From the NCBI GenBank assembly GCA_003344405.1, contig NOWV01000144.1, positions 1-64,000 on the forward strand: a stretch of 64,000 nt of DNA, written 5' to 3'. The stretch's first letter is position 1; each line of letters starts with the position of its first letter. Origin of the DNA: Trichoplax sp. H2 (lineage: Eukaryota). This document shows, in pieces, positions 9,546 through 64,000 of this stretch. Made by a program: the position numbers and the translations under genes. Under the pieces are notes generated by a model that made no database searches, had not been told where the DNA came from, and saw nothing but the letters and a program-made list of their open reading frames with translations.

Positions 9546-9670
9546 TATTATTATAATAATATTATTAATATTCTTATTATAATTATTATTATTATTATTA
9601 TTATCATTGCTAATAATATTATTATTATTAATAATGATGTTCATTAGTAATATTAGAATTATTTATTGAT
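9546..9670. repeat. Low-complexity (ATT/AAT)n tract just downstream of the LRR gene stop codon (probable 3' UTR)
   Basis: Nearly pure A/T run: attattattataataatattattaata...attattattattatta. Confidence 0.85.
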
Positions 9671-12600: not shown

Positions 12601-15600
12601 GATCAGATTTTGAAATAAATCAGCTGGTAGTTTACCAGTTATGTTGGAGTTAGATAGTTTTCTAACGTTAATAAAAACAAAAAATATAATTAATGCTTGT
12701 ATACAGCAGTTTTATTATTACGACTATAGATTTGGACGTAAGAATAAAGTAGCTAGTTATTTAACGATGTCATCATTAGCTATTAATAATTTCAAATTAT
12801 ATTTCCTACTGATCAGCAATAGTTACTACTGGCTTAGAATAATTATTCATTCTTTATTTACTTTTTATATTAAAAATGTTGACATGTATAAATGTTTATA
12901 TCAGTTGTAACTATCAACCGTGGCTGAAAATAATAGGCTTGCTTTTTATGTAGTTAACTTTTATCCTTCAAGGTTACTTACAAAACTAATAATCCCGTCA
13001 GATCCCTAAATAAGGTTGATTCTAATTTCTTCAGTGGATTATTGCTGAGAGTTCTAGCAAGTATTCAAATAGGGATAATGTGAATAATATAGACTTAAAT
13101 CGTGATGAATATATTTTAAGTCGGAAATACCATATTATTTTGATTAGACTAAGCTTAATCTAAATATACGATCTAGATCAACTAGAAATGCACATCTTTA
13201 CTAGTTCAAGAAGTAATAAGATTGCTTACAAAGTACTTAGTGACTTCAAATTTTTAAAGACATTTCCGGGCAAGTTTGTCAACGTGTTGGACTTGAAGTT
13301 TCTATTTATTAATAAAATGATATTTGCGTTTTTAATTAAAGAAAAATACTTCAAGGTTTATAGTTTTGACTAATAGCTAAATGCATCGTATAATCTATAT
13401 TAATAAACTTACAATGTTTCCAATAAGGAGTTTTTAGCAAATATCTGAGCAGGTAAATTAGATATTTGATTATCGTTGATAGTTCTATAAATCATAACGT
13501 AAAAATTATATATTAAAACGGATCATATTTACGTATTCTCTAGTCTGTTAATATTTATCAGCATTATATTAACTTACATTCTTCTTAAATCAGGTAACTC
13601 TTGGAATAAGTTGACATTAAGGTTTGATAATTTGTTTTTTTCCAAATATCTGTGAGTATAAATAGTATCATTTGGTTGATATAATTGAACAACTTACGGT
13701 TCTAGCAATATTACTGTTGTACCAAATTTTTCACTTATCAAATAGGGATTACTTAAATTCACTATAGTTCAATCTTAGCAAATTATTGCGCTATACTTCT
13801 AAAAATTACATTCAGTCTCGATCAGACTTACAAGTATCTCAGCTTTTTCAATCTGTTAAAAGCTCTAGGCGAGATATAATTGATAATGTTGTCGGACAGA
13901 TCCCTATAATTGAAATTTTAATTCGATTGAGAAGAGAGATATTGTTATTAGTAACATGCAAGGTGCTATATAATTAGATAAGATATTTGATATTACTATA
14001 CAGTTATATTGATCTGATTTTCATTATTGCCAATCTAAATACGAAATATTATTATCATAAATTAACTGTAATTATATAATTGACTAGCCTTATTTATTCG
14101 GTATTTTAATCTTTTTAGCAATTTAAATATAAGTAATGGTATGTTTCTCAATTTAATAGTCTATCATACTGAAATAGCGGTAAACTATTAACATAGTATT
14201 TATTTGAATATTACTTACAAGCTTGTCAAATTGGTTAGATAGTAAAATGTACTATCGCCAATGGCAGCGATCTTATTGCCGGATAAAGTCCTATAAATAA
14301 AGTTGATGTATTGAATAGTTAGATTCTAACGCAAAATTTTCTAACGCGCAGTAATATTATTTGCTTAACAGTTTATTTACGCATTTATTGTACTCCTACA
14401 CTATTTCCACTCCAATTATAACTACGGTACTAATACAGAAGGAAAAGGTAAGGTAATAGCATACTATAGTTGGTAATTTATATTATCGACACATTTTTCC
14501 TTTTTTACAATTAGGTAGTTATTTCATACATGTTATTAATGAATAATTAATGAATTTATCATGTTATATTATAAACAATACTATTGAAGGTGATCATAGC
14601 TAAGAAAATAATCAACATTCTTGCACTCTTTGTTGTTCAACTATCAAATGGAATGACAATGGCGTTACATGATGAAAAGATAGAAAGGATTAAAAAGTTG
14701 AAGGTTAACCAATAGCGAGTTGAATTAATGTATTAGTCATAACATTTTCCACTAAACTATGCGGTCACCTTAAGTAAATAAACAATATTTCTCTTGACTC
14801 TTTTGGTTGATGATAGAATTTAAATTGTAGTCTATTTTCGTATTATTTTATTCGGTAAATAAGAAGAAATGCTAGCGTAAATCAATCTAATTAAATCACT
14901 TATATCGCTTCCAAATCCAAAACCATCTAAATCTATCGCATCAATAACAATGCCGCAACAAAGTACATGTAATGCTCATTAATATTATGATAACGCGGTG
15001 TTGTCTTGAAAGATCAGATTCTATTGCCGTATGTTATGAACAAGTCAATGCCAGTTGATTAGGATTAAATTATAAAAGTTTACCTGTTACCGATCAAGAT
15101 ATAGCTACTTTGCAGTAGAAACTGTAGCCATTATCGATAACTTATATCGTTAATACTGATTCTCTTTAAGTGAAAGTCTAATACAATTAATTTTATTGCT
15201 TGGATAGAAGGAATGACAATTGTACGTGTTTAAATGTAGGCCATGTGTATAATTAATTAGTAGCTACGCTAGCAATATATTTATTGCTGCAGGCGGTAAT
15301 ACTGTATTACGGTTACAAGGTGTTGGTGTAGCCTGTTGACGTTAATCATGCATAGCCAGATTTGCCTGTTCTTTCAATTATAATTATATAGAATAACAGC
15401 AAATAGAGAAGCATTATTGATTATTTTATCATTTATTTGTTCTATTTGTGTTACCTCGGTATAATGTACACATTGGGTGCTATACGGTCAAGGCATTACA
15501 ATTTTATTATTCCGGAATGCGTAATTAATGGGGGGGGCTATCAACTAAGTCAATGTCAAACAGTCGGAACATTTGATTTGTGTTTTTTAACTTTATACAT

Positions 15601-18600
15601 ATATCCGCAGTGATGACAATCGCATCCCATCAAATACAGCTTGATATTATTCTAGACATGTGTTCTTTTGCGATCAAATGGTACTTATAGACATGTACTA
15701 GTTAGTATAGGCTAAGATGGGAAAGAGATTGTGTTCTATAAGCGCTTCTGCTACTGTAGTGGTTAATCGATCAATTTGTAGTATAAAGTATGGTAATTAA
15801 GGGTTAAGGTTTAAGCGATTTATTTCTAGAAGACTGCTGGTAAATTTAGATTGACGCTGTTCAATTTTACCGAATGATTTTATGATTCATTAATTCAGTA
15901 CAAACTCATTTCTCATGGAATATAAATACCATCACGAGAAAGTTATTCTTGCTTTGTTGTATCATTACGCCGTGATTGATTGATATTCAACTTACTGTAC
16001 CTGCATACTGCATAGCCTATCATTGCAGTATATTGTAAACGGGGTAAAAAAAGCTTTTACGTAATGCAGCTAAAACGACTTCAAATGTTCAATCAATCTT
16101 GACTTCAAGTAGTTTCAATCTCGGTAGTAATAGGTGTAACAGTGTTTGATTGACTTGATTATTGTGTGCAACAAAAGTAGAAAGGTTTGAATATAGTAGA
16201 AAAGAAGTACGGTTGAAATTTGGAAACGTCTTAAAACGCTCAACCACGATCCTATGTGCCCTAACGATCAGTTGTCTTGATTAATTCATTATTGTTGGCA
16301 GGAAATCAGCTTTTACTATACTACAGTATTAAATTACTACTGTACTGAAACGACTTACACATGTGCGAAAACATTTATCCTCTGTCAATGTACGCATACG
16401 TGATCCATCGGTTTGATTCATTATTGGAGGCGGAAAAACGCTTTTTCAATTTAACTTTGAATATCCATGACTACAAAAGTAACCGAATTGAATTCCATCG
16501 TACATGTGGGATTTTGGCTACAATGTAAGCCCTAAATTTTGAATTGCTTTCGTTTGTATGAAGGAAGGGTGATAAAAGCGTAAAATTCAAAATCAACCCA
16601 TTTGACCGCTGGACATGGGGTAAACCAGAGATTAGCAATCGTAGCACGAAACCGATACAATGTCCATTTTGTCAAAATCTTTTTTTCACTGTTATACGCT
16701 TTGAAGAATCAATGATTGATTCACTGGAGAGAACGGCATATAGTGAATGGGTTCCCTACTTTATGAACCCTTTCGGTTGACAATCACTGACTGGAACAAT
16801 TTCCAGTCAGTAGTTGAAATTGATCCTATCTCTTCGGTCATGCAATTTTCTACTGAGAAAAGTAGTTACGCCGTTCTCTCCAATTGATTGCACCTTCAAA
16901 ACCGATTTGCTTTTTGATTCACTGCAGAGAACGGCATATAGTGAATGGGTTCTCTACTTTATGAACCCTTTCGGTTGACTGGAACTATTTCCAGTTAGTG
17001 ATTCAAATTGATCCTATCTCTTCTGTCATGCAATTTTCCACTGAGAAAAGTAGTTGCGCCGTTCTCTCCAATTGATTGCACTTCAAAACCGATTTGCTTT
17101 ATTTTTTGCCTTCTTCAGCTTAAGTGGGCAACTTGACATGAACATAAAGAAAAATTGACGGTATAAGACCATCATGATATCCCCTTCGCCTGCAAGATGG
17201 AAGATGGCCTTCCTCTCCTGTAGCTTCTTCACACTACAGTAAGAACGCCATACTCAAATCATAACCATCAATCCTTCTGCAATGGTTGGCCGTGCTGGAT
17301 CGGAACCGAGGCGGTGTGAAATACGCGCCTGGCTCGCTACAGTACACTACGATTGCGTCCGTAAGGTTCTATACTGTAGACTACTATCCGAGAGTGATCT
17401 GGAGTGTCTAATACAGTACTGCCTAGTGCCTACTGACAGTATTAGTGTACACTTGGAGTTGAGAAAAAACAGTTTTTTCTTCACTCTCTCTCCTCGTACA
17501 GTACTGTACACTGTAGAGTCTATCGCTGACCTTGAACCACCTGCAGCGTAAATCAGCCGACTGGGTCGTTTGTTGCCAAAAGTCAACAGTGTTGATGACG
17601 CCTAGGCAGGTGAAGTGGCCACATTGACTCTCCATGGTACGTGTCCAAGACTGACTTCAGTCTTCGATCACTCTACAACACTACTGCCTAGTGGGTAAAT
17701 CATCTGCTAAGGTAATTCAACTGAACAGTATACAAAATGGCAGTCAAGCCTTGAAGAATAGTTGCCGTTTCCTACAGGCATTGCAAGCTATCGACAGTAG
17801 TCATGATGGTAGTTGAAATAGGACTCCCATTAGAACAGTATATAAAATGGCAATCAAGCCTTGAAGAATAGTTGCCGTTTCCTACAGGCATTGCAAGCTT
17901 GTCGACAGTAGTCATGACTCATGATGGTAGTTGAAATAGGACTCCCATTAGAACAGCATATAAAATGGCAATCAAGCCTTGAAGAATAGTTGCCGTTTCC
18001 TACAGGCATTGCAAGCTTGTCGACAGTAGTCATGACTCATGATGGTAGTTGAAATAGGACTCCCATTAGAACAGCATATAAAATGGCAATCAAGCCTTGA
18101 AGAATAGTTGCCGTTTCCTACAGGCATTGCAAGCTTGTCGACAGTAGTCATGACTCATGATGGTAGTTGAAATAGGACTCCCATTAGAACAGCATATAAA
18201 ATGGCAATCAAGCCTTGCAGAATAGTTGCCGTTTCCTACAGGCATTGCAAGCTTGTCGACAGTAGTCATGACTCATGATGGTAGTTGAAATAGGACTCCC
18301 ATTAGAACAGCATATAAAATGGCAATCAAGCCTTGCAAAATAGTTGCCGTTTCCTACACGCATTGCAAGCTATCGACAGTAGTCATGATGGCAGTTGAAA
18401 TAGGACTCCCATTAGAACAGTATATAAAATGGCAATCAAGCCTTGAAGAATAGTTGCCGTTTCCTACAGGCATTGCAAGCTTGTCGACAGTAGTCATGAC
18501 TCATGATGGTAGTTGAAATAGGACTCCCATTAGAACAGCATATAAAATGGCAATCAAGCCTTGCAGAATAGTTGCCGTTTCCTACACGCATTGCAAGCTG

Positions 18601-21600
18601 TCGACAGTAGTCATGATGGTAGTTGAAATGGGACTTCCATTAGTCCAATAGAGATTTCAACAGTTTCCATTCTAATTTGTAGTCGTCTTCATACATATCA
18701 CGTCGTCTACGGTAAGCTCTTGTCGGCGACAAGATGTCAAAAGTATCAAAATTCATTGGATTGCCATCGATTTGTGAATGGATACGGACTATATGCAACA
18801 CAAGTTGATCTATGGCATCTCTACACCATCATCGAAATGGTGGAGAAATAGTCTATCACTAAACGACAGCATTGTCCACTGTTATGAAATAGTCGAGAAA
18901 AGACTAGNNNNNNNNNNNNNNNNNNNNATTATTCTAGACATGTGTTCTTTTGCGATCAAATGGTACTTATAGACATGTACTAGTTAGTATAGGCTAATAT
19001 GGGAAAGAGATTGTGTTCTATAAGCGCTTCTGCTACTGTAGTGGTTAATCGATCAATTTGTAGTATAAAGTATGGTAATTAAGCGATTTATTTCTAGAAG
19101 ACTGCTGGTAAATTTAGATTGACGCTGTTCAATTTACCGAACGATTTTATGATTCATTAATTCAATACAAACTCATTTCTCATGGAATATAAATACCGTC
19201 ACGATAAAGTTATTCTTGCTTTGTTGTATCATTCGCCGTGATTGATTGATATTCAACTTACTCTACCTGCATACTGCATAGCCTATCATTGCAGTATATT
19301 GTAAACGGGGTAAAAAAAAGCTTTTATGTAATGTAGCTAAAACGACTTCAAATGTTCAATCAATCTTGACTTCAAGTAATTTCAATCTCGTTAGTAATAG
19401 GTGTAACAGTGTTTGATTGACTTGATTATTGTGTGCAACAAGAGTAGAAAGGTTTGAGTATAGTAGAAAAGAAGTACGGTTAAAATTTGAAAACGTCTTA
19501 AACCGCTCAACCACGATCCTATGTGCCCTAATGATCAGTTGGCTTGATCAATTCATTATTGTAGGCAGGAAATCAGCTTTACTATACTACAGTATTAAAT
19601 TACTACTGTACTGAAATGACTTGCACATGTGCGAAAACATTTATCCTCTGTCAATGTACGCATACGTGATCCATCGGTTTGATTCATTATTGGATGCGGA
19701 AAAACGCTTTTTCAATTTAACTTTGAATATCCATGACTACAAAAGTAAACGAATTGAATTCCATCGTACATGTGGGATTTTGACTACAATGTAAGCCCCA
19801 AATTTTAAATTGCTTTCGTTTGTATGAAGGAAGGGTGATAAAAGCGTCAAATTTAAAATCAACCCATTTGACCTCCGGACATGGTGTACTGTAGACCAGA
19901 GATTAGCGATCGTAGCACGAAACCGATACAATGTCCATTTTGTCAAAATCATTTTTCACTGTTATACGCTTTGAAGAATCAATGATTGATTGACTAGAGA
20001 GAACGGCATATAGTGAATGGGTTCTCTACTTTATGAACCCTTTCGGTTGACAATCACTGACTGGAAATATTTCCAGTCAGTAGTTCAAATGGATCCTATC
20101 TCTTCTGTCATGCAATTTTCCACTGAGAAAAGTAGTTACGCCGTTCTCTCCAATTGATTGCACTTCAAAACCTATTTGCTTTTTTTTTTGCCTACTTCAG
20201 CTTAAGTAGACAACTTGACATGAACATCAAGGAAAATTAACTGTATAAGACCATCATGATATCCCCTTCGCCTCCAAGATGGAAGATGGCCTTCCTCTCC
20301 TGTAGCTCCTTCCCTACAGTAGGAACGCCATACTAAAATCATAGCCGTCAATCCTCCTGCAATCGTTGGCCGTGCTGGATCGGAACCGAAGCGGTGTGAA
20401 ATGCGCGCCTGGCTCGCTACAGTACATACAGTACACTACGATTGCGTCCGTAAGGTTATACTACTGTACACTACAGTCTACAGTACAGTACTGTACTGTA
20501 GACTACTATCCGAGAGTGATCTGGAGTGTCTAATACAGTACTGCCTAGTGCCTACTGACAGTAGTAGTGTACTGTACAGTAAACTTGGAGTTGAGAAAAA
20601 ACAGTTTTTTCTTCACTCTCTCCTCGTACAGTACTGTACACTGTACAGTGTACAGTCTATCGCTGACCTTGAACCACCTGCAGCGTAAATCAGCCGACTG
20701 GGTCGTTTGTTGCCAAAAGTCAACAGTGTTGATGACGCCTAGAGAGGTGAAGTGGCCACATTGACTCTCCATAGTACGTGTCCAAGACTGACTTCAGTCT
20801 TGCTTTGCTCGATCACTCTACAACGCTACGGCCTAGTGGTTGAGTCAATCACTAAGGTAATTCAACTGAACAGTACAGTATATAAAATGGCAGTCAAGCC
20901 TTGAAGAAATAGTTGCCGTTTCCTACAGGCATTGCAAGCTGTCGACAGTAGTCATGATGGTAGTTGAAATGGGACTCCCATTAGCCCAATCGAGATTTCA
21001 ACAGTTTTTATTCTAATTTGTAGTCGTCTACGATAAGCTCTCGTCGGCGACAAGATGTCAAAAGTATCAAAATTCATTGGATTGCCATCGATTTGTGAAT
21101 GGATACTGACTATATGCAACACAAGTTGATCTATGGCGTCTCTACACCATCATCGAAATGGTGGAGAAATAGTCTATCACTAAACGACAGCATTGTCCAC
21201 TGTTATGAAATAGTCGAGAAAAGACTAGGATAATAAACGATCCAAGAAACGAATACGAGTCACTAGCGCTGATTATCTTTTACCGATTCGCATTTACTTT
21301 ATCAATAACTCTTACTGCACACCGATATCCGCTAACTACAGTCTAGTAAGATCGACTGGTGGCTAGACTACTCTTCGACTACGTCGTCGCATAATTCTTA
21401 AATAAGCTCGCTTACGACCAGTCTGCTAAATCATGATAACACTTCTTCATCCATGGATTACAATTTTATCCAATAGTCAAAATGAGCCTATGGAAAACTC
21501 TTTTAGTCTTCCCAGTTTGTCCCAGTTGACGGTTCCCCCAAAAATGTCAATCTAGGATTTCAATTTTACCGTGGTAATACAGCTTGATGCAAAATGACCA

Positions 21601-28744: not shown

Positions 28745-28773
<29 letters not shown>
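28745..28773. repeat. (AT)n microsatellite
   Basis: ~14 AT units, followed directly by CTGTA. Confidence 0.95.
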
Positions 28774-37700: not shown

Positions 37701-40700
37701 ATAATAACTTTGTCGTATTTCATAATATATTATACCTTTCGATATTACAGTAATGGTAAAAAAGTTATAAATGTCCTAAGAGCATCGTGAGCACGAAAGG
37801 CCCAATTGTACGACCAAATATTAATGATATCTGCTCTGATTAAGTCTATAACTTTAGATCGGTCATACTAGCTCATCTAGCTTGCTCCGATACTTTAAGA
37901 TACGATTACAGTATACGCGTAATATTGCATGGTAATACGCCAATATGAGCAATTTATTAAGAAGCTTTCAGATAGGCAGTAAACAATTTTATCTGACCTA
38001 GAATATTTAAATAGTAGATTAATCCTAAAAGCTCAAGAAATTTCACCGTAAAATCACAACGAATCTAAATCAAATACTGCATGAATCTCGTAATTGAATC
38101 TCGTTAATAGTTTATATATCGGAATTTGACATACTTAAATGCCAACATTCTCGTAAATTAGACAATAAAGAAGCGGTATAAAGAGTTAATTACCCATAAT
38201 ATCTGTAGTTCGGGTCTACTCATATACACTGGTGCTATACTTGTGTTCCAAAACAAAACATAAATTTTTCATACTTTGACAATTTAATTTTATTTTTCTT
38301 TATCAAATATATAACTGAAAAAAAAGAAATATTACAGAAATTACTTTTATACTATGGCTATGGAAAAGCAACAGAACGTAACATCGTACATCAATATGAA
38401 AAATTTGATTAGCAATTTTCGTAAATATAGCGTCCAATAATTCTTTAGCATGTTTCTCGGGTATTAATTAAGGCAGATCTTTTTTATAGTTCTTCTATAC
38501 TGACAGCTGTATAATATTCAGTAGGTTTCTTTAGATATGTTTTTGCATCTTGATAGATTTTTTCTAGTAGGCCTAAGTATGGCAAATTGGCATTAGGCAA
38601 TAACGTACGGCCAAGTGCAGGAAAACTTTACTGATAATTATTTTGTTACGAAAAGAAGCAAGGAAGAGAAAACTATATAAACCTACAGCAATAAGATAGC
38701 CCTACTTTAAGTTAGCTTCGGCCGCTATATATATTCTTTATAATTTCTTAGATTGACCTAATACTAACTGTCTAGTGACGAAGATTCTTATTTATACTAA
38801 CAATGTGAAATGATGTCATTGCATCAGGTTAGTGAACAAAATGAACGACATCCCTAAAGCGGAGGCAAATTTACTCATACTGAAACATTGTATATTTTTT
38901 ATCATATGTAAAGGGCATTTAAGCTATGAAATGTGGTTTATTAATTTAATGAAATATGTACGCGTAAACAAGCCAAAATAATTAAGCTAGCATGAGATGA
39001 TCTCGTGGCAGATAATTTAAGACAAAGCTACTGATATTTGCTGATAACCAATTTTTCTTTAATACAATAATTATTTATCTAATCGTACGATAAATATTAT
39101 GCACTGCTATTTAATCAAATATATGATATCGCTCTTTATGAAGCTGCATATATTTTCTAAAGTAATTGAAGAGTATTTTTCTGAACCTTATTACCTAATC
39201 ATATAGTTGTGATTAGCAGGAATTTATGATAACCATATGAATATTTCATTAATGCTCAAAGTAAAACTTGGATTTATTCAATAATTTAGCTTCTGGTAGC
39301 AGTTATGATTAACCCAAGAATTTCTAAAATTTTAGGAGCTCAATTCTTAACTGCCACGGCAAGTCTGAAAGCTAATTCAACTAGTTTATAAAATGTTAAT
39401 TCGGATATCAATGAGTTCAAAGTTCATAACTTTTCGATCATCTAACTCAAGACTTAACCTATACTGACATAGCTTTACGTACTGATTATCCAATAGTTAG
39501 TAAGTTTGGTGATATGGGAATTAAATAAGGTCAATATGTATAAAGTTGTTGTAAACCGAAATTTGTATTAGGGAAAATATAGAACTAATATAGAAAACGA
39601 TATTATGAGTCTTTTCTCATGGTTGTCCTCCTTGATATTTACCTACAGTCTGATTCTAAGTACTGACGATCGCCTATCGTCAGGAGGAACAGTAAACACC
39701 ACTAGTCTCTCTTAGATATATAACTGGACCCAAACTTTATTAAAAAGCCAGTTAATTTATAGAAAATCTACATAAACATTAATTATCAGTTTATAGATAA
39801 TACTATACAAGTATGCAATTATCTATTAAGAGCATGTAAAATATTATGGATCAATTGGTGTAAATACTGTCCTAGATAAGCTATCTTATGGAATCTGTGT
39901 TAAGACAGCTACGCAAAAGTTACTCCGTAACAAAAGTATAGTAGCATATAGAGCTAATTTTAAATATGAATGCGTCGATAAATTAAAATGTAACTAATAT
40001 TCATAGGGAATTAAGAATTTGACCTTAATTCAAGATTTGAGAATACTATATGCGAGTGTTTAATGCCAAAGAAATTTATTTTTAAGCCAGCAATTAACCG
40101 TAGATCTTAGATCATGAGCTGTATTGGTTTTTCAGTATTTTTGCATTACTTTTTGGTACAATGTATGGATTTAATAGGCTATATTCATTTCATTCTGCTA
40201 TTTCGCAAGGATCTTTCGCAAGACAAAAGTTTTACAAAACGCACTTAGCTTAGTGCTCATATTAAACTACTCGTTATAGAAACTACAATTAAAAAAATAA
40301 ATCTTAGCATCTTGCTTTTCAATGGAAGAGTAGTTAGCTTTCTTATACTACCTACGAATAAAGTGCTTATTAACAAAATTCAAAATGATTTTGGCGTGTA
40401 TTAACGTTGATAATGATGTTGATTTGACACATGGAAATGCTGTTTCTGTCTGCAAATTTTTTGTTTAATGAAACTAGGTCTATAATATTTTGCAATTATT
40501 TCATTTGAAATTCAGAATTCTTCATGACGGCAGAATTTTACGACAGATGAGCGCTGACTAGTTATTGATTTTCTACTAGTTTACGAGCTTTGCGCTCGTG
40601 TATTTGCACTGAAGCAAAGTTCTGTCCAACATTGAGAAATTATATTAAAGTCAATCTCAGATGAATTGTCTTGAATAGTAGCCAACTAAAAGTATAATAT

Positions 40701-40977
40701 TTAACAGCTAAAAGAACATTTGCTAGGAAAATTGTAAAATTCATTGACATCTTGGTCATTGATAAGAGAGCTGAAAGGTCACATCGTGATGTGTGTGCTC
40801 TAACGCAGTTTAAAGTATAGTATAACATAAATTGATATTGGTTTCAATCTGAGAATAAACACAGCTAATGTGTTTTTATGTCAGTGTCTTCACTTCCACG
40901 CCTGTACGAGTAAAATGCTCTATCGACTGTAGTCGCGCTTTTTGATCGGCTAGTCCTCCAAGAGAAGCGTTATGCGA

Positions 40978-40996
40978 AGAGAGAGAGAGAGAGAGA
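40978..40996. repeat. (AG)n microsatellite
   Basis: agagagagagagagagaga, about 700 bp upstream of the SMS ATG. Confidence 0.9.
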
Positions 40997-41339
40997 AGGT
41001 TTTCTAGCTACAAAATAAGTAATAAATTCCTGACTAAAACTAAAGCCTAAACCTTCCCCGATATGCCCTCGAATTCATCACCCTGGAGCACTAGAAGTCA
41101 AGTTAGATAATGGACGAAATGAATTGGTATTTCTCAGCATTGACGGTAACCTATCGATTGCGGTTAATCACGCAGTTGCTGATTATTCATAATGTAGAAT
41201 AAGAGTGTCATTTCCGGTTTCAATTCAAGGCACCCTGTTGTAGAATTCAATATCTTCATAGAACTCCAACCTTCAACTTTGTTTGTGGGCCTAGACTTGT
41301 CCGTAAAAGAAAATCAATTTCAAGCCATCGTTAGAGCAA

Positions 41340-41709
41340 AGAGTGGCCATGGTCCTGCGTCAGGCTGTCCAATGTCCATCCGGTCGCAGTGTAAGTCTTC
41401 CGATGGACTGCAGTACAGACGGTTGCCTTGTTTCACCCAGACTCTAGAGCGTGGCGAAAGAAGGTCTTGAAGGTCTGGCCCAGGTCCGGACCGGACCGGA
41501 CCATCAAGACCTCTAGTTCCACCGTGTACAGTACTATACACTGTACACTGTACAGTACTGTACCGCACAGTGCAATGTATGCTCATCCACAGTACAATGT
41601 ATTGCAAATAGCTACAGTGGAAAAATCAAGACTGTAGACTGGACCAGCCTAGCAAAACCATCAAGTGGTAGAACCGCACTAGGCAACTTTCCATCTGTCA
41701 GACAGCAGC
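41340..41709 (+). promoter_or_regulatory. Probable promoter/5' UTR island of the spermine synthase gene
   Basis: Locally GC/CpG-enriched stretch directly upstream of the ATG at 41710; contains GGTCCGGACCGGACCGGACC (41483-41502) and a TA-CWG-TA chain (41527-41562). Confidence 0.6.
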
Positions 41710-44700
41710 ATGGCCGACGACAAAGTCTTGCATTATATGTTTGATTTTCGATCCATTCAAACTTCATTAACACCCGAAGCATTCATTGCTGATGCTAGTC
41801 AGTTTATGAAGCAGAAAGATTTCAATTTAGTATGTTCATCGCCATTACCCCATGGTCAACTCTTGGTGTGGACTGGTCCTGATCGTAGGTGAGCTAAACT
41901 AGGAATAAGACATTGAGTCGATGATAATTTGTTTTATCACAACGATCATAGCTAAAACAACGTTATGGCAGTTGAAGAAATGGCTTGGACATAAACTACC
42001 GCCGGTGCGCTCGTCTAATTCTATGATTGCCCTTCCAAATTGATCCCTATACTGTATTGTAGTTATAAATCTGCTGACGGACGTATACATGTTATGGTTA
42101 AAACTGCAACATATATACTAAACGCCAACAGCTATTCAAATGAGCGCCAGACAAAATGACAAGAACAATATGACAATAAAATAAGTCAACAGGAATAGTA
42201 GTCCAATCGCTTAATAGGAAAGTGATGTCAATATTGTAGGGATACGAGTAAAAGCAGCAATGTCCACTGGATAAACTAGTTGATTCACTCCTGTGTACAA
42301 CACATTGCACACCAATGAGCTGATTGGCCATGGCAACAAGTGGTCATTCCATTCAGGATGGAAATAGCCTCAACATGGGCTCGAATGGCGTTTATTTCGT
42401 CCCCATCACCTTGTATTCTCGTGTATATGCAATATTGTATAGTACGGTAGTTCGCGATTTGGGAGTCGTCAACACTTGTACATGAAAAGCACGTTAGACC
42501 TACTGCTGATGCAATATGTTCAAAGTAGTTTATTGTGTTGAATGGATGCAATGAATATCATTATTCACAACTTGACACCTTCACGTGCAAGCTAGACTCA
42601 ACTGATGCAATCTATCAAAACCATGAACTGGCCTGGCCATACTACTGGATAATATATCACTCTAGTCAAAACTTTTCTCAATCGTTATCGATTATAATTA
42701 TTCAAATAGCGTATTTTGGATATCATCGACCAAATAATAATAATTCAAATTAGAAGTACAGTAGTATAGCTACAAAGTAGTGCATGGGATGATAACAACT
42801 ACGTACTGGCTAGATACAGTACAGTAAACCAACTATTCTACTACTTCTTCTTTATATTTGGAGATCAATATAACAGTCAAGACACGTCTAGGAGAAAAGA
42901 TGATGATTATTGCTAACAATCGACGGAAATATCATTGTACGATACTCCAACCGACACACTGAAGGATTCGTATTACCGTAAAAACATCGTCATGACGAGA
43001 CGATAAAATTACTTGCGGTCATAGAAGCTAATCTTAGCTTCATGACCTCTTCCTACTGTCGACAATAATGATAGTCGATGCAAAATACTAACACGTTTTA
43101 TAAAATAGTCGTTACATGAGCATGTGTACGTGCATGTTTTTAGCTATCCTCGCCTACGTCCTATTACTAAGATATGCTCGCTTAAGATTGACTGCTAATA
43201 CGTCAAAAATGCAATCGAATTTTATCGATCTTATTATTGTGTACAAACTTACAATTTGCTCTGTCTAAACAAACATTGCATCACCAAATCCGTCTTCTTA
43301 CTTTATACTTACTCTTATTCCTTGATAGCCATGCGGTCATTCGACTCTACCAGGATATCAACCGAATTACTGTGGATATAACAAAACCGCTACCTGACGG
43401 GAAAACAATCATTTTTAGCGAAGACGTAAGATTGTAATGATATTACAATGGAAGAGCTACTCTTTTTTTAAACCCATTTCTGATGCTAAAATAATTTGTA
43501 ATAAAAGCAGTGATAAATAGTAATAAAATTAAACGGGAAGAATGTTACTGTGAGTAAATCGTTACAGTAATATCGAAAATAGATGTATCCATTAGTGAAC
43601 TTATCAAATAGTTCGCATTTACAGTACCTGTATGCGGTATGATGCATCTTAGTTGTGGTAGTGTTATAGCTATATAGAAGCTCTCTAATAGGTGTACAAT
43701 AGTCAGTCATTTGCTTACATAGTACGAAGAATATACTCTTCAATTGATATCCTAAAATGATAGAATTTGTAATACATTTGACCAGTGTTAATACAAGCGA
43801 TCCATATGATATAGTCCATCTCGAAAGGACTAGAAGAATTCCAGTGGCTAGTAACAAATCAGCTTACAGTAGAGATTTATATACCTCAGATTACACGTGT
43901 CCTATCTCCATTGATATACAGTAGTACGATAAACAAAACTACATATGCGTAAACAATACTTGTCCTAGAACTAATTAGTGATTACATTGCGCTATACATG
44001 GTTAAAATTATTATGAATTACGTAATTGTGGAGCGATTGTCCAATGTAACTATATTATATCTATGTTATTACCATGCTAGGATGAACGTGAAATCAAATC
44101 TTTGTTTCAAGGAAACAGTAAAAGGTAGATTACTTACGCATAAGTTCTTGTTGACTCAACAATAGGATTAGGGTTAATATTATTTATTTTTATTGATTAA
44201 AATAGCTACCCTGCAATTCAACGATGCCGAGATTTGGATATTTATGTTCCTACTTGTGATAATAGACTCGTCGAATATGACTTTGACAAGTTCGTTTATT
44301 CTTATAAATTGTAGTTAGTTGCGTATAAAAACAGAAAAAATGCATCAGTCACCATACGAACTAGTTTTGAAGTAATTACGCGTATTTATACGGCATTACG
44401 GTATAGGATTAAATTTTGTAATTACCTAGGGAGTTTATAGACCTCGTGTGTAATACTAATTCTGCTATAATTATGTTTCACTACCACGTTATTATATACT
44501 TTGTATCTTCATACAATTATAGAGTAGTGGTAAATGTAGATACCCAATTCCAAAATGTTAAAATTTGTCATTCACCACAATATGGAAATATGCTTCTACT
44601 GGACGACGACCCAAGTAGGTTCACTGTAGCTATATACTCATATCGAAATTGAAGTTCAATGTCAAATTCATCCTGTAGCTCCAAATTGATAATGGCTCTT

Positions 44701-46091
44701 AAAGTTCATGTTTTTCAATTGTGCTGTATATACTATATTTTCAGATTTAGCAGAGAGCGACATTGCCTATACTAAGGCTATAACTGGAAATGATACCCAA
44801 GATTATACTGATAAAACTGTCCTCATTCTTGGTAAAACAGACTTGTTCAACTAATTAATTAATTACAGATTAATTGCCATTGCCAAGATATTTTTCTTGC
44901 TGTTAATATGTATACTTATTACTGTACTTAGGTGGAGGCGATGGAGGTATTCTCAATGAGTTGCTGAAACAATCGCCAAAATATGTGACGATGGTGGAAA
45001 TATCTTTCATTATTTTTTTTTACTTTTAAAGAGTATTTAAAATACAGCTTATCGTAAGAAATAACGTTAGCTCGCGTACGTCGCAGTTAAATAGAACACA
45101 AATGCCTCGGAAACTACGCCCCTTAACGTTTCTTAAATTGATCAGGTAGTTATTGATGCTGCTATTAAACATTTACGTGGTATATGTGAAAATGCTATGG
45201 ATTCACTGGAAGGGCCAAATTACAAGGTAGGTATCACAATAGAATAAAAATTAGATATTCACACCTATCAATCAGTATTATGAAACTTTACAGATTAGGT
45301 TAAACATGAAAATGTGCGCATTAGCCACTTTCGTAGCTTTTTCCTTAAGGATGGCGACTTTCTTGATAGGTTATTGTTGAAGATTGTGTTCCGATACTGA
45401 AAAAGTATGCAAGTGAAGGAAAGGTGTTTGATTATGTCATCAATGATCTGACTGCTATCCCTGTTTCAACTACTCCTCAAGGTTTTATTTTTCAATTTCT
45501 AAATATCGCTGTTGTCTCCATGTTGAGCAGGTAGCTGTACTAACCTAGATATGTATATCATGAGTTAGGATCTCAATGGGATTTTCTACGTCTAATACTA
45601 CAATTATCAATGGATGTCCTCTCGGAAACTGGACGCTATTTTACTCAGGTACCGTATATCGATGTATACATCGTCGTATCAGTACGACTTCAACCAGGTT
45701 TTATTGTTAACTCGTATTTAATTTTTAGGGAAATGGTGCAAATAATGTCCATGCTCTTAAACTTTACGAAGAACAGCTGCAAAAATTAAGTAGAAAAGTC
45801 GATTTCAGAAAAGAAACCGTTTGCGTTCCTTCTTACCTTGAATTGTATCCAAAAATAAATAAAAAGCGTTATCATTTTTTTATTGCTGCAGTAGATATCT
45901 AGTAATTTAAGGTTGATGCTTTAATAAGTATCATATAAGTGATCAATAGTATTATAGGAATTCAGTTCATACACAATGGTTATCGTTCATAATTCTGCAG
46001 TCATTAGAAGGATAGCATTTTTTACTTTCTGTTTTTCCTCAACTTCATATTTCTTACTAGTTGGATCTTTTATGAAATTTGGAAGGTTTAA
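41710..46091 (+). CDS. SMS: Spermine synthase (aminopropyltransferase), ~359 aa, 12 exons
   Basis: Exons 41710-41888, 43329-43425, 44081-44124, 44206-44289, 44523-44614, 44745-44831, 44932-44999, 45137-45226, 45370-45481, 45569-45648, 45729-45844, 46061-46091. Motifs: [122 protein letters not shown]. Confidence 0.96.
45000..45136 (+). other. U12-type (minor spliceosome) intron with AT-AA termini in SMS
   Basis: The coding frame requires ...ATG GTG GAA | ATT GAT CAG.... The intron starts ATATCTTT, has branch site CCCCTTAAC at 45119-45127 and ends ...TTCTTAA at 45136. Confidence 0.85.
45845..46060 (+). other. Probable U12-type GT-AG last intron of SMS
   Basis: 5' end GTATCCAA (U12 consensus GTATCCTT); branch-like TTTCCTCAAC at 46034-46043; ends in AG at 46060. 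Confidence 0.65.
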
Positions 46092-47434
46092 ACAGAAATA
46101 ACATTGCGATTGGAGAGGTGATGGATCATTCTAAACTGGCTCATTTTATTCTCGTAATCATTATAATTATCAATTGTAGAAACTGGCTTATTATATCTTC
46201 GTAACTGTAATAATACACCAGAAAGTTATATTTCTTTCTGTACTGAAATTCATGACACTTTCCTGCGTATTATGTATTCACCATTGCCCTTAGTATTGAA
46301 TAGCACAGTCAACGATCCAATTTTTTCAGTGTTTTATACTCATATTACAGTTAAGCGCAAATTCGATAACAACCAAGTATTAAACTTACAGGTATTTTTT
46401 ATTTTTCGCATTTTTGGTCGTTACTTTTAATTAACATACACCCATGTTTATATATTCGTTTACCTGTACGTGCATAGACTTAGCTATGCAAAAACCAAGG
46501 TTTTTTAAAACATAATTGCTTCCTTTTCATATGTTAAAAAACTAACAATCTCTATCACCTGTAGATGCACAATTGCTTCTCAATTGAAAGCAATTATTAA
46601 CACTTATGACCGGAATAGCGATGACAATCCTTTTTGTAATAAAGTCTTTAGCAAACACCGATCACCGAATTGGCCGTAACTATTATGCAAGATCTCAAGT
46701 CTTGCATAGTTAATTAATTATGCGCTTTTTCCAAAACTAAATACTGTGATTGACGCTTAGCAATATAACGTTAATCATAAATGCTACCTAGGTCGCAAAT
46801 GTAAAGATTAAAAAATAATTCAGCAGTTCACAATAATGTCAAGAGCGTCCCATCAGTGGACTCTATATAGCATTTAGATATCCATTAACTATGTACTTAT
46901 TATTTATCAACAGATAGTAAGGACAAATTTGTTCACTATCAGAAAATTACTTGCAAAGTGCGATCTCGTACTACAATTGCAATCTACAACAGAAATTATA
47001 ATTTCATAATGTGTTATTATCTAACTTAATCAATGCAGTATGCCAAACGAGCAAAAGCATTTACAAGGAGTCCGAATATTAGCAGATAAATAACGACATC
47101 AAAAAATTTTACTATTGCTGAACGCATGTCTTAAACAGTAATTATAGCAGATCAAAACTGTAAAAAAAAGTTCGATATTAAATTATATCGGCAAGCATGA
47201 CCACTTGTGTGTTATGTTAGTTCTGTTATAATTTGCGTTAATAAAAAAGTCATTTAAAACTACGTTACGCTTGTTTTGCTATTACAAATAAAATTAATTT
47301 TAAAATAACACTTCAATTTCCTATTCAAAATTCCATCATCATCCATTGTCTGAGAATTTATATCTCGAAAACATATATAACAATTACACTCAACGAAATA
47401 AATAAAACCTCCGTAGATATTTTGATATAACATG

Positions 47435-56916
<9,482 letters not shown>

Positions 56917-57500
56917 ACTATCAATTCAATTCGTCTTGAAAAATGGACTGAAAAAATGGCAAAAGGAAAGCGCCAATGGAACTGATTTTTTTTTCCTCTC
57001 TTTGGACTTGTCTTTTAGCCAACAGTGGTTGGCTCGTTCGCTGGATGCTTCAACCGTGGGCTGAATGACGTGAGGGGGATGGGATGACCTGTACCGACCG
57101 ACGTGCTCGAGTGCAACCAATCAGTCTGAGTGTGTGACGGACTGAAGCGAACTGATTGACAACAAGGCTACAGTACGGTTTCACATGCACCGGAGTGAAA
57201 GATGGACAGTATGTACTGTACACTGTACGGACTTGCAGTACAGAACACTACTGATTGGTAGAAATCCATGGGTAGGACAATAAGGACATGTACCAGACTA
57301 CCAGACTCTGGACATACAGTACTGGACAGTGTACAGTTGGAGGTATTGTGGTCTGGACTGGTCCGGACCTTGGTCTACTGTACAGTACATACTGTACACT
57401 GTAGACTCTACAGTGCAACGTTTCAAGTACTGTAGTCCTTCAAGCCAATCTCGATACGACTAAACTGGTACGCTATGTCATCCAACTCCAATACTGTACA
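56917..57500 (-). promoter_or_regulatory. Probable promoter/5' UTR island of the RSK gene
   Basis: GC/CpG-enriched region upstream of the ATG at 56916; contains GGTCCGGACC (57360-57369) and TA-CWG-TA chains (57214-57227, 57376-57403). Confidence 0.6.
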
Positions 57501-58158
57501 ACACTGTCAAGCCAGTACTTCGCAAAGATTAATCCATAAACTCTTTCTATCCCTTTGATCGAGGATCTGGAAAGGGGAAGGGATCACGATTTCTACAGTT
57601 GAAAACTTGAAATGCATGATTTCAAGCTGGGACCTCTTGAATAAATGCACTTTTCACAGGTTACTGATTCGACTAGACACAGGAATGAAATTATTAATGA
57701 CTACTGCAAGTACAGGGTCCTGGACATTGTACAACAGTGCATGTTCGAGAACTTACTGCAGCATTGACTGTACAACACTGCTGCACATACTGTACAAATA
57801 CCCTACACATCACAGTGGCATATCACTAATTCAGTAAACCATAACTGAACAGCAAACATGTATTGCCAAGCAACATATCCTACAAACAAATAATAAATAA
57901 ATACAATAATACATCGATAGTCGCATATTTTTATTAGTAGACAATGGTAAGAATACATAATCTTGTTATATTCTTAATCCTCATGGTATGGATTGAATTA
58001 AAATCGTTCAATTTAGCTCACATTTGTACATAAGGACATACGTACACATAATAGCAATCTCAATAAACCTTTTAGGAGTCATTATCACATAAACTTCGAG
58101 TATTAATAAAACAGGATAACTTATCGACTGCTAATTCAAATATAAATTAACAAAGTCA

Positions 58159-61100
58159 CTACTTGCGATCTTTTTCAATATGGCCTGTAACACCAGACGG
58201 ATATCGATTTGAATCGTGAGTATTCGATTGCAATGAATCAACCATCATAGGACGATGATGGCCAATAAAATGCGGACTCGCTGTAACTATCGGCGAAATT
58301 TCGGTCGATCCAAAATTGGTGACACCATTGGATGGTTGCAGTATACTACCTACTGCCATTAATTCAACCATCTCTGCTCTCAGTGCCGTAATTTCTTTAT
58401 CACGCTTCTGCAATTGGGCTTCAATGAGTTCTTTTTCATGCTTTGCGATTCCCATATGCTCAAACATATCCATTTTTATTCGAGTTTCAGATTTTAAATC
58501 ATTTTCTAATTTAATATTCTTTTCTTGCTGTGATGAAATGTTACATTTTAACGATTCTATTTCTTTTTTCATTCTTGATATTTCCGTCTGATTTTGATGC
58601 CTATAGACTTCAAATTCCTGTCGGGCATTTCTAAGCTGATCTTGTCGCTCATGAAGTTGCGTCAATAGCATACCCTTCTCCTTTTCCAACGTAGCTTGAG
58701 TCAAGCGGCAACTATCATGAGATATATTAATTGCTAAATTTGGCTCCATTTTCTTTTGCCAACTACTTTCAACTTTAGACTTTTTATCATTCTTTTTAGA
58801 TTGACTATCTTTGTTGGCGCTTGATATACTCCTATTTCTATACAAAATTTCAAGTAGAGCAATAAATTAATTATAGCATGCTCCAATTTCTAAAGCCATT
58901 GTAATCAATTAAAAAATGTTGTTCGCCGTAATTACTTGTACGCGCATATATACTGTAGAAAGAGATAGTTGCACACTGTATCAACGCATTATAACATAAT
59001 GTGGTATACGTTTATTAGAATGATTTATACTGTAGGCAAAAAAAATCGAAATTGATGGTAAGAATTTCATTTCTGTTGTACCGATTGCCACTTGAGTTCT
59101 TCAAATCTTCTTTAACAGCCTCTGTACGCCTGGACTCTTCTACTAATTTTAGTTGCTGACGAAGCTCTTGTTCGACATAGTCTTTTTGCTAAATAGGTTG
59201 ACATCGAAGCAGAAATAATCAACAATACAACCATACTGATTGATAGTAAATAGTATTTCGCTCTAACATAATTACGCCAATGATTCGTAACATACATCTA
59301 CTACAACTACTAGGAATGATGAAAGCAAGATCGAAATAACACAATTTTAAATTCTAATTTAAGGCATATAATATCGGTTTTGCACGTATAATACCTTTAG
59401 GTCATCTTTGACTTTTTTTATTTCAATTTCAAGATTTGTTATGATGGACGAGGCCTTTAGCCTGCAAGTATAATACAAATAAAAATGATAAAATAATGAC
59501 ATGGATAATTACTTTATGGACCATGTTTACATTAATCATACCTGGCAGCTTTCTCCTCTTGATACTGAATTACTAAAGAATCTAGTTCGATTTGCTCAGG
59601 TTTACACTCTCTACTCTCATAATTTATCTCAGTTTTATTATTCTTTTCTGATAAGGCTGCAGAACTTTGATCACATCTCGGATTTGTAGGCAATACGTAA
59701 TCGTCGTCTACCTCATCTTTCGATAAATTCTTTGAGGATACAATAGCCGGAGAAGTCTCCATGACTTTTCCTGCAAAATTCTTAGCACTGGAACTACGAT
59801 TTGTATGATTAATTGTCTTTATTATGACATTACTATCACTGTCGGAGACACTTTTTTTATCTACAGTTTTGTTAATTTTATCAGTCAAGTCTTCATTTCT
59901 TCTAGCATTAATCACGTTATTATCTGGATTAGATTTGACTTTTGATTTATGTATACTTTGTACAGTCGTCGTCTTATGTTTTATCATATTCGAAAATCTT
60001 AGCGCCCAATCTTGCAATTTTTCGGCCACTGCGGCTGTATTATTAAAAATTTTAAGTTAGCATGACAGTAAGGTTATTGCCATAGTTATCAAACAGTAGA
60101 CTAACAGCATACCACTTAATGATGGATCGCTAGCTGCTGTTCCCGCAATCCGATTAAGAGCTTCTTTTGTATGCTCGTTTGAAGTCGTAGGTATTAATTG
60201 ATTGATAGATGATATGATAGCTTTATCTCTGTGAATTTGCAACTGTTTATTCTACATATATAAAAGCAATATTGTAACAGGAAATAAATAATATCGCTAT
60301 AGAAAAAACGCGACCTCGTACTCAACTTTTCTATCTAACCGTAATTATAGCATAGTGTAGATAGCAAATCTCATCCACTTACTCTTATCATTTGATATTT
60401 TAAATAATTTATTATTCCACGCCCTATCGTCACCAACGAATGCCCAATGCTAACATATAAAAATATTTATATTTCTTAATTTTTGATGTTACTCGATGTG
60501 ATAGGAACATAAATAAATTATAATTACTTAGTTCACCATATCCTTACCTATGTGCAGCTAATGGGAGACATAATTCTAAATAAATTGGTAAATGGATAGC
60601 TCTCACCGTTGCTTCATTATATACAAATACCATCCAAATAAATAAGGTCGCTGAATTCAACCGTTCTAAAAGGTAAAGTTCAGTTAATTGATAAGTATAA
60701 TAATAAAATTTAAATTGGTTACGTCTTTTAAGAAATAAATATATTAAGAATCAATCCGATTATGTTGGAATGTTAAAACTATCATACCAGAATGACACGC
60801 TATCTGCATACAATTATACGTGCTAGCAGTGAATAAGAGCCACCGTGTAGGAAACATGATTAGTAATAGGAAATCCGCTATTACAGTCAGTCCAGTCAGT
60901 AATATTGTAGCCTCCTAGAACGGTATGCAAAACACAAAAGATTTTAAGACATAATCTGTACATTTTTGATCGATGACTACTGATTAGTTGAAATTATTAA
61001 TAAAATGCCTAATACAACTACGATATACAATACAACAACTAGAAATAATTGTGATTATAATATAGTAGAAGCTCCATTATTATTCAGAACTCTCGCTATA

Positions 61101-63319
61101 GTAATTTGTACGGTTTAGTAGAGCGAAAGCTATGATTGCAATCTCCATCAATATCCCATCCGATATCAGTATCTTGAGGTAGTGGCCATCGATATACTAC
61201 ACTATTAATATTAAATTATTTTCTCGAGCGTTGGTTATCTCAATTCTCATATTCTACCAGATAGCATAGTGTTACTTGTGCAATAGAGAGGCTAAGAGAG
61301 CCTATTATTTATTATTGTTGTTAGACTGACTATGATAGTATCGTAGCCTTCAGCATTGGTTTTGCCCGTGCATCAAGTGAAAAACCTTCAATTTAAAACT
61401 TTTTGGTGTTAATCATCAATGTACTACATAATCAGTACCGCTTCAAACTTCGTAATCGATACAATGTATAAAACATTGATAGTAAATAAAAGCGTATTTA
61501 ATGGCTATTAAAATGCTAGATCATCCATCAGTACTTTTATTTAGTCATTATCGTTTAATATCGTAACTTAAGCGGCTTCTTTAACTGTTACCACTAAGTC
61601 GAAGTACTGAGAATTTCAAGATCTTTATGTACAGTATATACATTGAAAGTAAAAATTTTTGTTATTGAAGGTTTTTGAAATGGCCATTATTTTATATTTG
61701 TATGTGGTATCGATCAAGAATTAAACTACAGTAGTAATGAAGGATTAAGCTTACAATCATAATCAGTTTGACAGCTTATTTCCACTGTATCTGCTATTAG
61801 ATACTTTCTACAAAAGAGATTAACTTACCAATCCTTGATACTTTAAAATTTCGTAAGTATCTTTCATTAATAGCCATACGGGCCAAAGAAACTCAAAACG
61901 AAAATTTATTAAAGTATCCAGTGCTAGCACTGAAACCCAAGTGACAAGAAAACGGCCAATTAAAGTTAACCTATGAATAAATTTCAAAGTCAAAAATGTC
62001 AAAAGTGAAAGAAAAGATTGCAATTTTGAATAGATTTTAGTCAATTAAGAAATAATCATACGATATTAGTGGTTATAAATTAAAATTTTGTACGTTTGTG
62101 ATATCTTTACCTGCAGATAGTGTAATGTAAACGTAATACTACAATGGTAGAATTTTAGCTGAACTAAACAATTTAAATACGATACTGCAGAAAGTAAACG
62201 CGATATTACCAACACTAGTAATTGCTAGTGTAAATTAAAGTTGACAACAAATTATAATTTGTTGCGAAAAATAGCTTTTCCTTCCTATTTTTATTAACAT
62301 TTATATTTAACTAGTAACACCAGCTTTTGTGTTATATTATTCAATGAATAAAGACTAATTAATAATGTACATTTGGCTATTAACAATTTAAGACATATCA
62401 AATTTTGAGACTGAATTATGGTGATTTTTATATTTTAAAAATGTCACTGTTTCATTACTACAGTTATAGACTTCTATATTACCCCCTAACATATATTTTT
62501 ACCAGCCGATACTCGTTGTTAACTTATTCGATCCATACGCACTATAAGAAATCTAATAACTCACTCATTCTATTACTAAAGAACCATAATAGAATGCAAC
62601 CGATATTGGCTAATTAATTAACTATCGACTTATACGTCTACGTTTAAATAAACATTACGTGGTAGCAAAAATCTCACTCTATTACAAAGCTACGTATGAT
62701 ATTTAAGAAGCAAGAAAGACGAAAAATGGTCGTATACTCCATACTATAATTCCTAACTGATTGCATTTCTAGTAATTCAGTTATACTTATCATAGCTGTA
62801 CTTCAATAGTATTCTAATAGAAGTCTCACTACAGTACAGTATAGTACAGTACATCAATATCAGCGTATAGAATAGAGTAAACAATAAATACAGTTTCATA
62901 CTTATTTTCTCTCTAAAATATCGTCTTACCGAGTATGCAACAACAAGAAAGTTATTGTTAGCTTGTATTATAGCAATTACACTTTCCTTCCGGTTTTATA
63001 CATTCGCATAGATATACTACATTTACAGCGTACATAGACCTTTTACAAATATTATATACTGTACGGTAGAAGAGTTGGCGTTTACGAAATATTCATATGC
63101 AAGCAGTAATAACAGCGGCTGATAGTAATTGGTCATGTTAAACTGATGGTTAGTCATCTATTTATTCACTATTTCAGAATTACAATACAATCCGTCTGTA
63201 TAATTACAAACATCAATCCAATCTACTCACCTCGAAACCCTTCCATATATTGTATCGGTAATGCGTGTCTTCTTCACTGAACGGCGAACTTTACTTACCT
63301 CCGCAGTTCGCCGCTTCAT
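58159..63319 (-). CDS. MACO1: Macoilin (TMEM57): N-terminal multi-pass TM region plus C-terminal coiled coil, ~675 aa, 10 exons
   Basis: Exons 63231-63319 (MKRRTAEVSKVRRSVKKTRITDTIYG), 61829-61970 (FRFEFLWPVWL...YQGL), 60788-60914 (WLLFTASTY), 60548-60665 (IWMVFVYNEA...LCLPLAAH), 60383-60449, 60113-60251, 59542-60034, 59395-59461, 59082-59188, 58159-58837 (LENDLKSETRIKMDMF...AKHE); phases are consistent. Confidence 0.93.
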
Positions 63320-64000
63320 GGATGAAAAACTGGAGTACAACTTTTATACAGTAAATTAAAGTCTATAAAAGAAATTAAAGAATGCACATATGAGAAGATT
63401 AAATTAGTAAAGGAATTATATTGGCCATCTTGCACGTATAGAAAAATTACTAATTGATTGTAGGCAAGTATCCTATTCTATATTACATTTATACATCTGT
63501 ACGTAGTGTCATGTGAAATGAAAAAGTGATGATCAAGGAATAATTTATGTCATCTCTGGCATCGTATGGTTCTAAATTTTTAATATGAATGCGCTATGTT
63601 TACATTATACATACTTAATATATAATCAGATACCTAGAGATGCAACTGTTTACATGTTACTGCATTATCAATATTGCAGTACACTGGTATACAGTAAAAC
63701 AATCATTCAGTTACTGTACAGTATAATAAAAAAAATAAAGGCATAGAAATGAAAAGATATAAAATTACATTGTTATTACGAAAAGCTAATATTAAGTAAG
63801 ATGCTATACCATTTAAATCATGCCATTTATATGACTATATAAATTTTGAGTGAAGATAAATTAGCATGCCAAATAAAAGGAAAATTAGGTGAATTTTAAA
63901 GTCGTAATCTATGTAGATTACCCGAATGTGCTACGTACAACACTAATTATGCCGTACAGTTTTCAAATAAAGAGAAAAAGGAACCAATTGATCAATCTTT

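Follow-up and report, generated by a model that had tools for sequence, protein, structure and literature searches.

The chain of TA-separated CAG, CTG and CACTG units that precedes a spermine synthase gene of Trichoplax is, with near certainty, one small array of the known ACAGT motif that is associated with promoters throughout this genome. As to its origin, our judgement leans slightly towards growth in place, by which the array would have been built through local duplication and deletion from palindromic seeds, with orientation flips arising by quasi-palindrome repair, and would probably have been kept as a protein-binding or chromatin element. The DNA analysed (the window) is 64,000 nucleotides long, and its host was recognized as the placozoan genus Trichoplax from the exon that begins at the ATG at 41710, which shows 100% identity over 98% of a 60-aa query to 'Spermine synthase [Trichoplax sp. 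H2]'; the full protein carries the Pfam domains PF17284 and PF01564. Read directly, the chain is TACAGTACTATACACTGTACACTGTACAGTACTGTA (36 bases), and it ends 148 bp and begins 183 bp upstream of the ATG, to which its position was measured, the RNA contigs having no power to show the transcription start. The original prediction had placed TA dinucleotides separated by CAG, CTG or CACTG about 150-180 bp upstream of this gene, in a promoter-proximal position, and its parse, its placement and the identity of the gene are all borne out. The features of this promoter are the following.

41527..41562, no strand assigned: ACAGT-motif chain in which four units are 5 bp long (G>A at 41536 in one of them) and two are 7 bp long
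41534..41554, plus strand: 7-mer in three head-to-tail copies, the first copy with one substitution
41462..41512, no strand assigned: imperfect inverted repeat around a TA-free GGACC/GGTCC pentamer array of mixed orientation (array at 41483-41502)
41710..41888, plus strand: first coding exon of spermine synthase, with a GT donor at 41889 and further exons matching at 43327-44999

The internal structure of the chain can be read as an expanded palindrome. Over 41526-41563, 34 of the 38 positions are palindromic, which makes the chain near-palindromic, and when two copies of the 7-mer are removed and the substitution is discounted, a perfect 22-bp palindrome is left. Run the other way, a 22-bp palindrome with its central 7-mer present three times and a single G>A at 41536 gives the exact chain, and a two-unit seed, three duplications and one substitution rebuild the whole of it; the stretch 'c-TA-TA' makes more sense as a CTG unit carrying this G>A at 41536. 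With five chained units the chain is the longest in the window, and none of the shuffles (400 in all) contained a chain of more than two. The density of the heptamer TACWGTA, for which a comparison with shuffled controls had been proposed, is above chance, the window having 92 copies where shuffles that preserve di-, tri-, tetra- and pentanucleotides (100 per order) average 14.6, 21.0, 38.3 and 56.3 and reach 69 at most. The chain is not unique, since 12 chains of at least five units occur in a genome sample of 462,340 bases, which is made up of the window, the remainder of its contig and 270 kb from a second contig. Its longest perfect ACAGT-period run is 9 bp (by inspection), and the CCGGA array holds the longest run of period 5 in its vicinity. 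The read depth at the chain is swamped by about 2,100- to 2,600-fold matches from other loci; one X12 contig spans 40600-43534 with 49 gap letters at unlisted places, a joint in the X2 run that 'goes back 36' near the chain may come from other loci, and the near lack of cover at 40600-41263 in the X2 run proves nothing.

Two further array fields of the window are important for the argument below.

57169..57795, no strand assigned: second array field with the same vocabulary, about 250-880 bp upstream of a likely kinase ATG at 56916 (minus strand)
20418..20660, no strand assigned: a third field of arrays, located in the B copy of a tandem near-duplicate whose A copy (about 17330-17525) has shorter arrays

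The field at 57169..57795 is polymorphic, with 5-bp and 33-bp motif indels, and the minus-strand gene that it precedes has kinase domains in the Pfam scan, its ATG at 56916 being likely by reading. This kinase gene, which lies downstream of spermine synthase, may be RSK. A small array field is also found upstream of the presumed start of the macoilin gene. The protein kinase and macoilin genes occupy the minus strand downstream of spermine synthase (window 46000-57000 and 58000-63320), and CT..AC joints of RNA contigs at 51002-52320 fit introns of the kinase gene. The tandem near-duplicate comprises 15646-18907 and 18928-21228, which are 87-95% identical with a 20-N gap between them; the whole of 15646-21228 may represent two haplotypes assembled in series, and copy A (15646-18907) contains about seven copies of a 118-bp unit and has a stretch of about 200 bp duplicated internally. 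The window also holds a multi-exon gene on the minus strand at 10000-15400, which by eye has leucine-rich-like repeats and a long low-complexity tail, as well as ordinary repeats of the (AG)n, (AT)n and (TAT)n kinds and a tandem pair of 89 bp (40978-40996, 28745-28773, 9546-9630 and 528-695). GGACC/GGTCC pentamer arrays stand beside ACAGT arrays in two promoters (41462-41512 and 57349-57369).

The vocabulary of the chain pervades the genome. A 17-mer taken from it has 2,053 copies, and its reversed control none. In the 462-kb sample, TACWGTA is the top 7-mer (918 observed, 194 expected) and the top word of the form TA-NNN-TA, 4.7-fold enriched, and forms 44 clusters; TACASTGTA is 9-fold enriched (80 vs 8.8 expected). 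A second palindromic word, TACGCGTA, is 6-fold enriched in the same sample (62 vs 9.8). All 64 non-self matches to the promoter at 41300-41710, of which only the best candidates were scored, are short (at most 92 query bases) and confined to the motif part, without shared flanks, and an origin of the chain from a dispersed repeat or MITE was rejected, as the genome matches to the promoter cover motif words only. In the parts of their work available to us, Wang et al. describe ACAGT as the dominant microsatellite of T. adhaerens, accounting for 78% of its pentanucleotide repeats, place 54% of ACAGT repeats within 1 kb upstream of genes, propose for it a role as a binding site, which matches the alternative of a clustered transcription-factor site in the original prediction, and find transposons to be scarce, with no active elements (Wang et al., 2010; PMC2871265). 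The genome-wide enrichment of ACAGT at promoters is taken here from that study. The chain shares with their motif the 5-bp unit, the high abundance and a location at most 1 kb in front of housekeeping and kinase genes, and it is an instance of the broad ACAGT promoter motif, with a Trichoplax host, repeated and over-represented ACAGT/ACTGT units and a gene less than 1 kb downstream. However, Wang et al. counted perfect repeats of more than 12 bp, whereas the chain is interrupted, of mixed orientation and contains 7-bp units, and with no perfect period-5 run above 12 bp it falls outside their narrow class; spermine synthase is absent from their gene table, and orientation mixing, the 7-bp unit and the origin of the motif receive no mention in the text available from that paper. 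A neural-network model of Hi-C data, Chimaera, names repeating ACAGT and ACGG as chromatin-folding motifs of T. adhaerens (PMC12817080); the repeating ACAGT word is the same as here and is tied there to chromatin folding in silico, and the sections of that paper at hand give neither an origin nor a binding protein for it. The motif is not mentioned in the accessible text of Eitel (2018) and Najle (2023), and within an incomplete coverage of the literature we found no paper on a footprint origin or on orientation mixing of ACAGT.

Genome-wide, adjacent 5-bp units occur as CAG-CAG 9,677 times, CTG-CTG 9,740 times, CAG-CTG 7,619 times and CTG-CAG 6,616 times, so that 14,235 of 33,652 adjacent pairs (42.3%) are inverted, and pairs of the same orientation (19,417; 58%) are in excess. 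The original prediction had held that this is not an ordinary microsatellite, and the share of inverted pairs supports that view. The 7-bp unit follows a rule of its own, CACTG coming after CTG 4,752 times and after CAG 829 times; the 462-kb sample repeats the bias (31 vs 4; p=3.5e-6), and simulated independent footprints give 774:765 for the orientation of its neighbour, i.e., 1:1. The same test on the downstream side points in the same direction without reaching significance (15 vs 6, p=0.08). Arrays with such a coupling cannot be counted as stacks of independent scars, whereas duplication of a 7-mer across a CTG-TA-CAG junction yields exactly the bias of CTG before CACTG that is observed. 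Slippage with random point mutation alone was rejected as well, since flips of the central base far exceed other substitutions: the two centre-flipped dimers number 40 and 27 in the sample, and none of the 34 remaining words one substitution away from the same-orientation dimer exceeds 14 copies, most having at most 5. The neighbouring pentamer GGWCC has 170 dimers genome-wide (control 70), and by hand count the first 50 of these listed sites include 16 inverted ones, so that orientation is mixed in a word that lacks TA as well. These inversions are one-sided (15 vs 1), those of ACAGT near-even (7,619 vs 6,616), and given this one-sidedness the two may not share a mechanism.

Comparison of alleles and copies shows what kinds of change the arrays undergo. 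Motif indels were drawn from the tandem near-duplicates of the window and from three DNA runs over 40600-60500 (12 of 32 indel rows), and at least ten were seen, with classes assigned by eye: four tandem duplications (5, 5, 7 and 9 bp), one near-tandem 5-bp event, three multi-unit blocks (10, 33 and 33 bp, one with 5-bp microhomology) and, as 2 of 10, clean 5-bp events at TA (57492 and 57788). Most motif indels between haplotypes or copies are thus duplications or block deletions. The event at 57788 lies inside a 22-bp tandem repeat whose other copy retains the unit, and it therefore looks like a deletion. At 57492, a non-repeat TA, the 5-bp unit occurs only in the window and is absent from all three DNA runs; being private to the window, the long allele looks like a gain, as a footprint would give. 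However, a 14-mer of this long allele recurs at a site some 275 bp away, a kind of sharing found in 8 of 188 core pairs, six of them in apparent tandem repeats, and this hints that the long allele is ancestral, so that the signs of polarity conflict. No orientation flip was caught as a polymorphism among the indels compared, and a search of the 462-kb sample for further allelic duplicates returned only the window's own pair and otherwise tandem arrays. A metagenome scan gave two distant relatives (39% and 55% identity) without heptamers, which are uninformative for a cross-species comparison of the promoter.

The history that we infer for the spermine synthase chain, including how its units flip and what they may do, would begin with a palindromic seed of two opposed TACWGTA words, whatever the source of that seed. 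Tandem duplications of 5, 7, 9 or 10 bp would then lengthen the array and deletions between short repeats would shorten it; these event sizes, except the 10-bp duplication, are seen at other arrays of the window and are carried over to this chain. The 7-bp units (CACTG/CAGTG) would be by-products of duplicating a 7-mer over a CTG-TA-CAG junction, a step that the neighbour coupling strongly supports. Flips of orientation would come from template switching or from the repair of fold-back mismatches: (CAGTA)n is a quasi-palindrome, the central A/T being the one position at which it departs from its reverse complement, and units could therefore flip without any transposon; that templates are switched between short inverted repeats is documented in the available portion of PMC8604942. 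The arrays would persist at housekeeping promoters probably through a protein that binds the symmetric TACWGTA or through an open or insulated promoter, a step for which we draw on the literature.

Slippage and flipping fail to explain the isolated copies of the heptamer. In the 462-kb sample, 323 of the 918 heptamers stand alone, with no other inside 100 bp, and their flanks are near background. Outside clusters TACWGTA is enriched 1.7-2.8-fold (order-2 Markov model, three masks) and TACSGTA about equally, 2.1-2.2-fold, in a comparison that cluster masking biases against W and in which old decay could give a similar result. A general enrichment of odd palindromes is ruled out as the cause by their median O/E of 1.01 over 128 such 7-mers. 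The transition neighbour of the heptamer has the largest excess at five of the six non-central positions. Short non-canonical footprints are not enriched under the order-2 model (O/E 0.84-1.01), and under order 1 their O/E spans 0.84-1.53, with two enriched (1.22 and 1.53). Few nonamers are found outside clusters (17, where 5-10 are expected). Both an old, decayed rain of footprints and a tolerant binding site fit the isolated copies.

Any transposon origin calls for an element that could have written the word, and the candidates found in the genome are listed here.

L050:1378-2541 (G000:C323), minus strand: single-copy Tc1-like transposase gene with a DD34E-type triad
L051:886-1971 (G000:C183): intact 361-codon frame with helix-turn-helix and DDE_3 domains
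L092, L093 and L094: three intact pogo/CENP-B-like DDE_1 frames of 419-549 codons, without terminal repeats

Profile searches of the genome gave two DDE_3, three DDE_1 and no Transposase_1 matches, the control for the Transposase_1 search (PF01359) having matched nowhere either. L050 has an apparent GT-AG intron, one in-frame stop and no terminal repeats within 1.5 kb. L051, by reading, is without the first catalytic aspartate, has no terminal repeats and has one relative (P0004; 54% identical); its frame and domains make it a candidate domesticated transposase and a possible DNA binder. No terminal repeats were found in the 1.5-kb flanks of the DDE_3 and DDE_1 genes, TA-flanked CAG ends are absent from L050, L051 and the three pogo-like genes, and none of the 25 candidate pairs listed out of 48 was a convincing TA-CAG-ended MITE. 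No Tc1-type element with TA-flanked CAG ends was found in the genome by these searches, which are lower bounds and would miss an extinct element.

Against growth from seeds of whatever source stands, as a tentative and rather unlikely possibility, the view that the seeds themselves were excision footprints: an extinct or undetected CAG-ended Tc1-type transposon would have left TACAGTA and TACTGTA scars, densest in open promoters, from which slippage and duplication built arrays that may have been co-opted. Its appeal lies in the word itself, the top TA-NNN-TA word at 4.7-fold, which in both orientations is exactly the pair of canonical Sleeping Beauty excision footprints, differing at the centre, that are given in the part of bioRxiv 10.1101/659086 available to us; the original prediction was therefore right in calling the core word footprint-like. 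The excess of centre-flipped dimers (40 and 27, against at most 14), the 42% of inverted neighbours, the isolated copies in near-background TA flanks, the transition neighbours in excess as neutral decay predicts, the clean 5-bp indel at 57492 and the survival of a single-copy Tc1-like DD34E gene, L050, all agree with it. However, no writer is at hand, as L050 is single-copy, with an apparent intron and a stop and without terminal repeats within 1.5 kb, and neither L051 nor the pogo-like genes have such ends; nor were active elements reported in the available text of Wang et al. (2010; PMC2871265). Short non-canonical footprints, which according to the same Sleeping Beauty source make up more than half of the events in cultured cells, are not enriched under the order-2 model. 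TACSGTA is about as enriched as TACWGTA outside clusters, with the masking bias against W and the chance of old decay already noted, and the 14-mer shared by the long allele at 57492 hints at an ancestral long form. The neighbour-coupled 7-bp units and the duplication-type indels are likewise unlike Sleeping Beauty footprints.

The stronger version, put forward in the original prediction, in which every unit of the chain, whether of 5 or of 7 bp, is an excision footprint of its own at an insertion hotspot, we find very hard to credit. The chain does parse fully into TA-separated CAG, CTG and CACTG, and the share of inverted neighbours would suit it, but the orientation of CACTG depends on its neighbour (4,752 vs 829) where independent events would give 1:1, and the list of eight Sleeping Beauty footprints in the consulted part of bioRxiv 10.1101/659086 contains neither CACTG nor CAGTG. 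Few nonamers lie away from clusters, the chain can be derived from a seed of two units by three duplications and one substitution, and no CAG-ended element turned up in genome searches that give lower bounds; a stack of independent scars is thus largely contradicted, even if context-dependent repair of the excision break could in principle also couple units. Little more credence goes to the chain as a remnant of a Mutator terminal inverted repeat (TIR), or as the loop-anchor motif that Kim et al., in the portion of their paper available to us, report inside annotated Mutator TIRs at placozoan housekeeping promoters, which serve as promoter hubs (Kim et al., 2025; PMC12221973). The type of location is the same, a link to transposons is proposed in both cases, and arrays of ACAGT vocabulary mimic pairs of TIRs, which an automatic annotator could call as such. 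Unlike those TIRs, which we compared by description only, the chain has neither an element body nor shared flanks, the scored matches to 41300-41710 being short and limited to the motif. Identity with the loop-anchor motif was our first reading, and it was lowered to its present improbable standing once PMC12817080, as far as its accessible text goes, assigned the motif of Kim et al. to ACGG, with ACAGT as a separate one.

As a single locus the chain in the spermine synthase promoter is ordinary, one of thousands of similar patches. Its interest lies in the question that these patches raise together, namely what writes and what reads one symmetric 7-letter word that serves as the main promoter repeat of an early-branching animal with almost no transposons. 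What is added here is a cheap discriminating statistic, the tie between the 7-bp unit and the orientation of its neighbour. The widest conjecture, which we regard as unlikely, is that the dominant Trichoplax promoter motif goes back to the excision scars of an extinct Tc1-type transposon with CAG ends and a preference for open chromatin, and that these scars seeded arrays which local duplication enlarged and which were then co-opted for promoter function or insulation; their reader could be a catalytically dead domesticated transposase such as the conserved single gene L051. Were footprint seeds the true beginning, the scars of transposons, and not their bodies, would have become the regulatory vocabulary of this genome.
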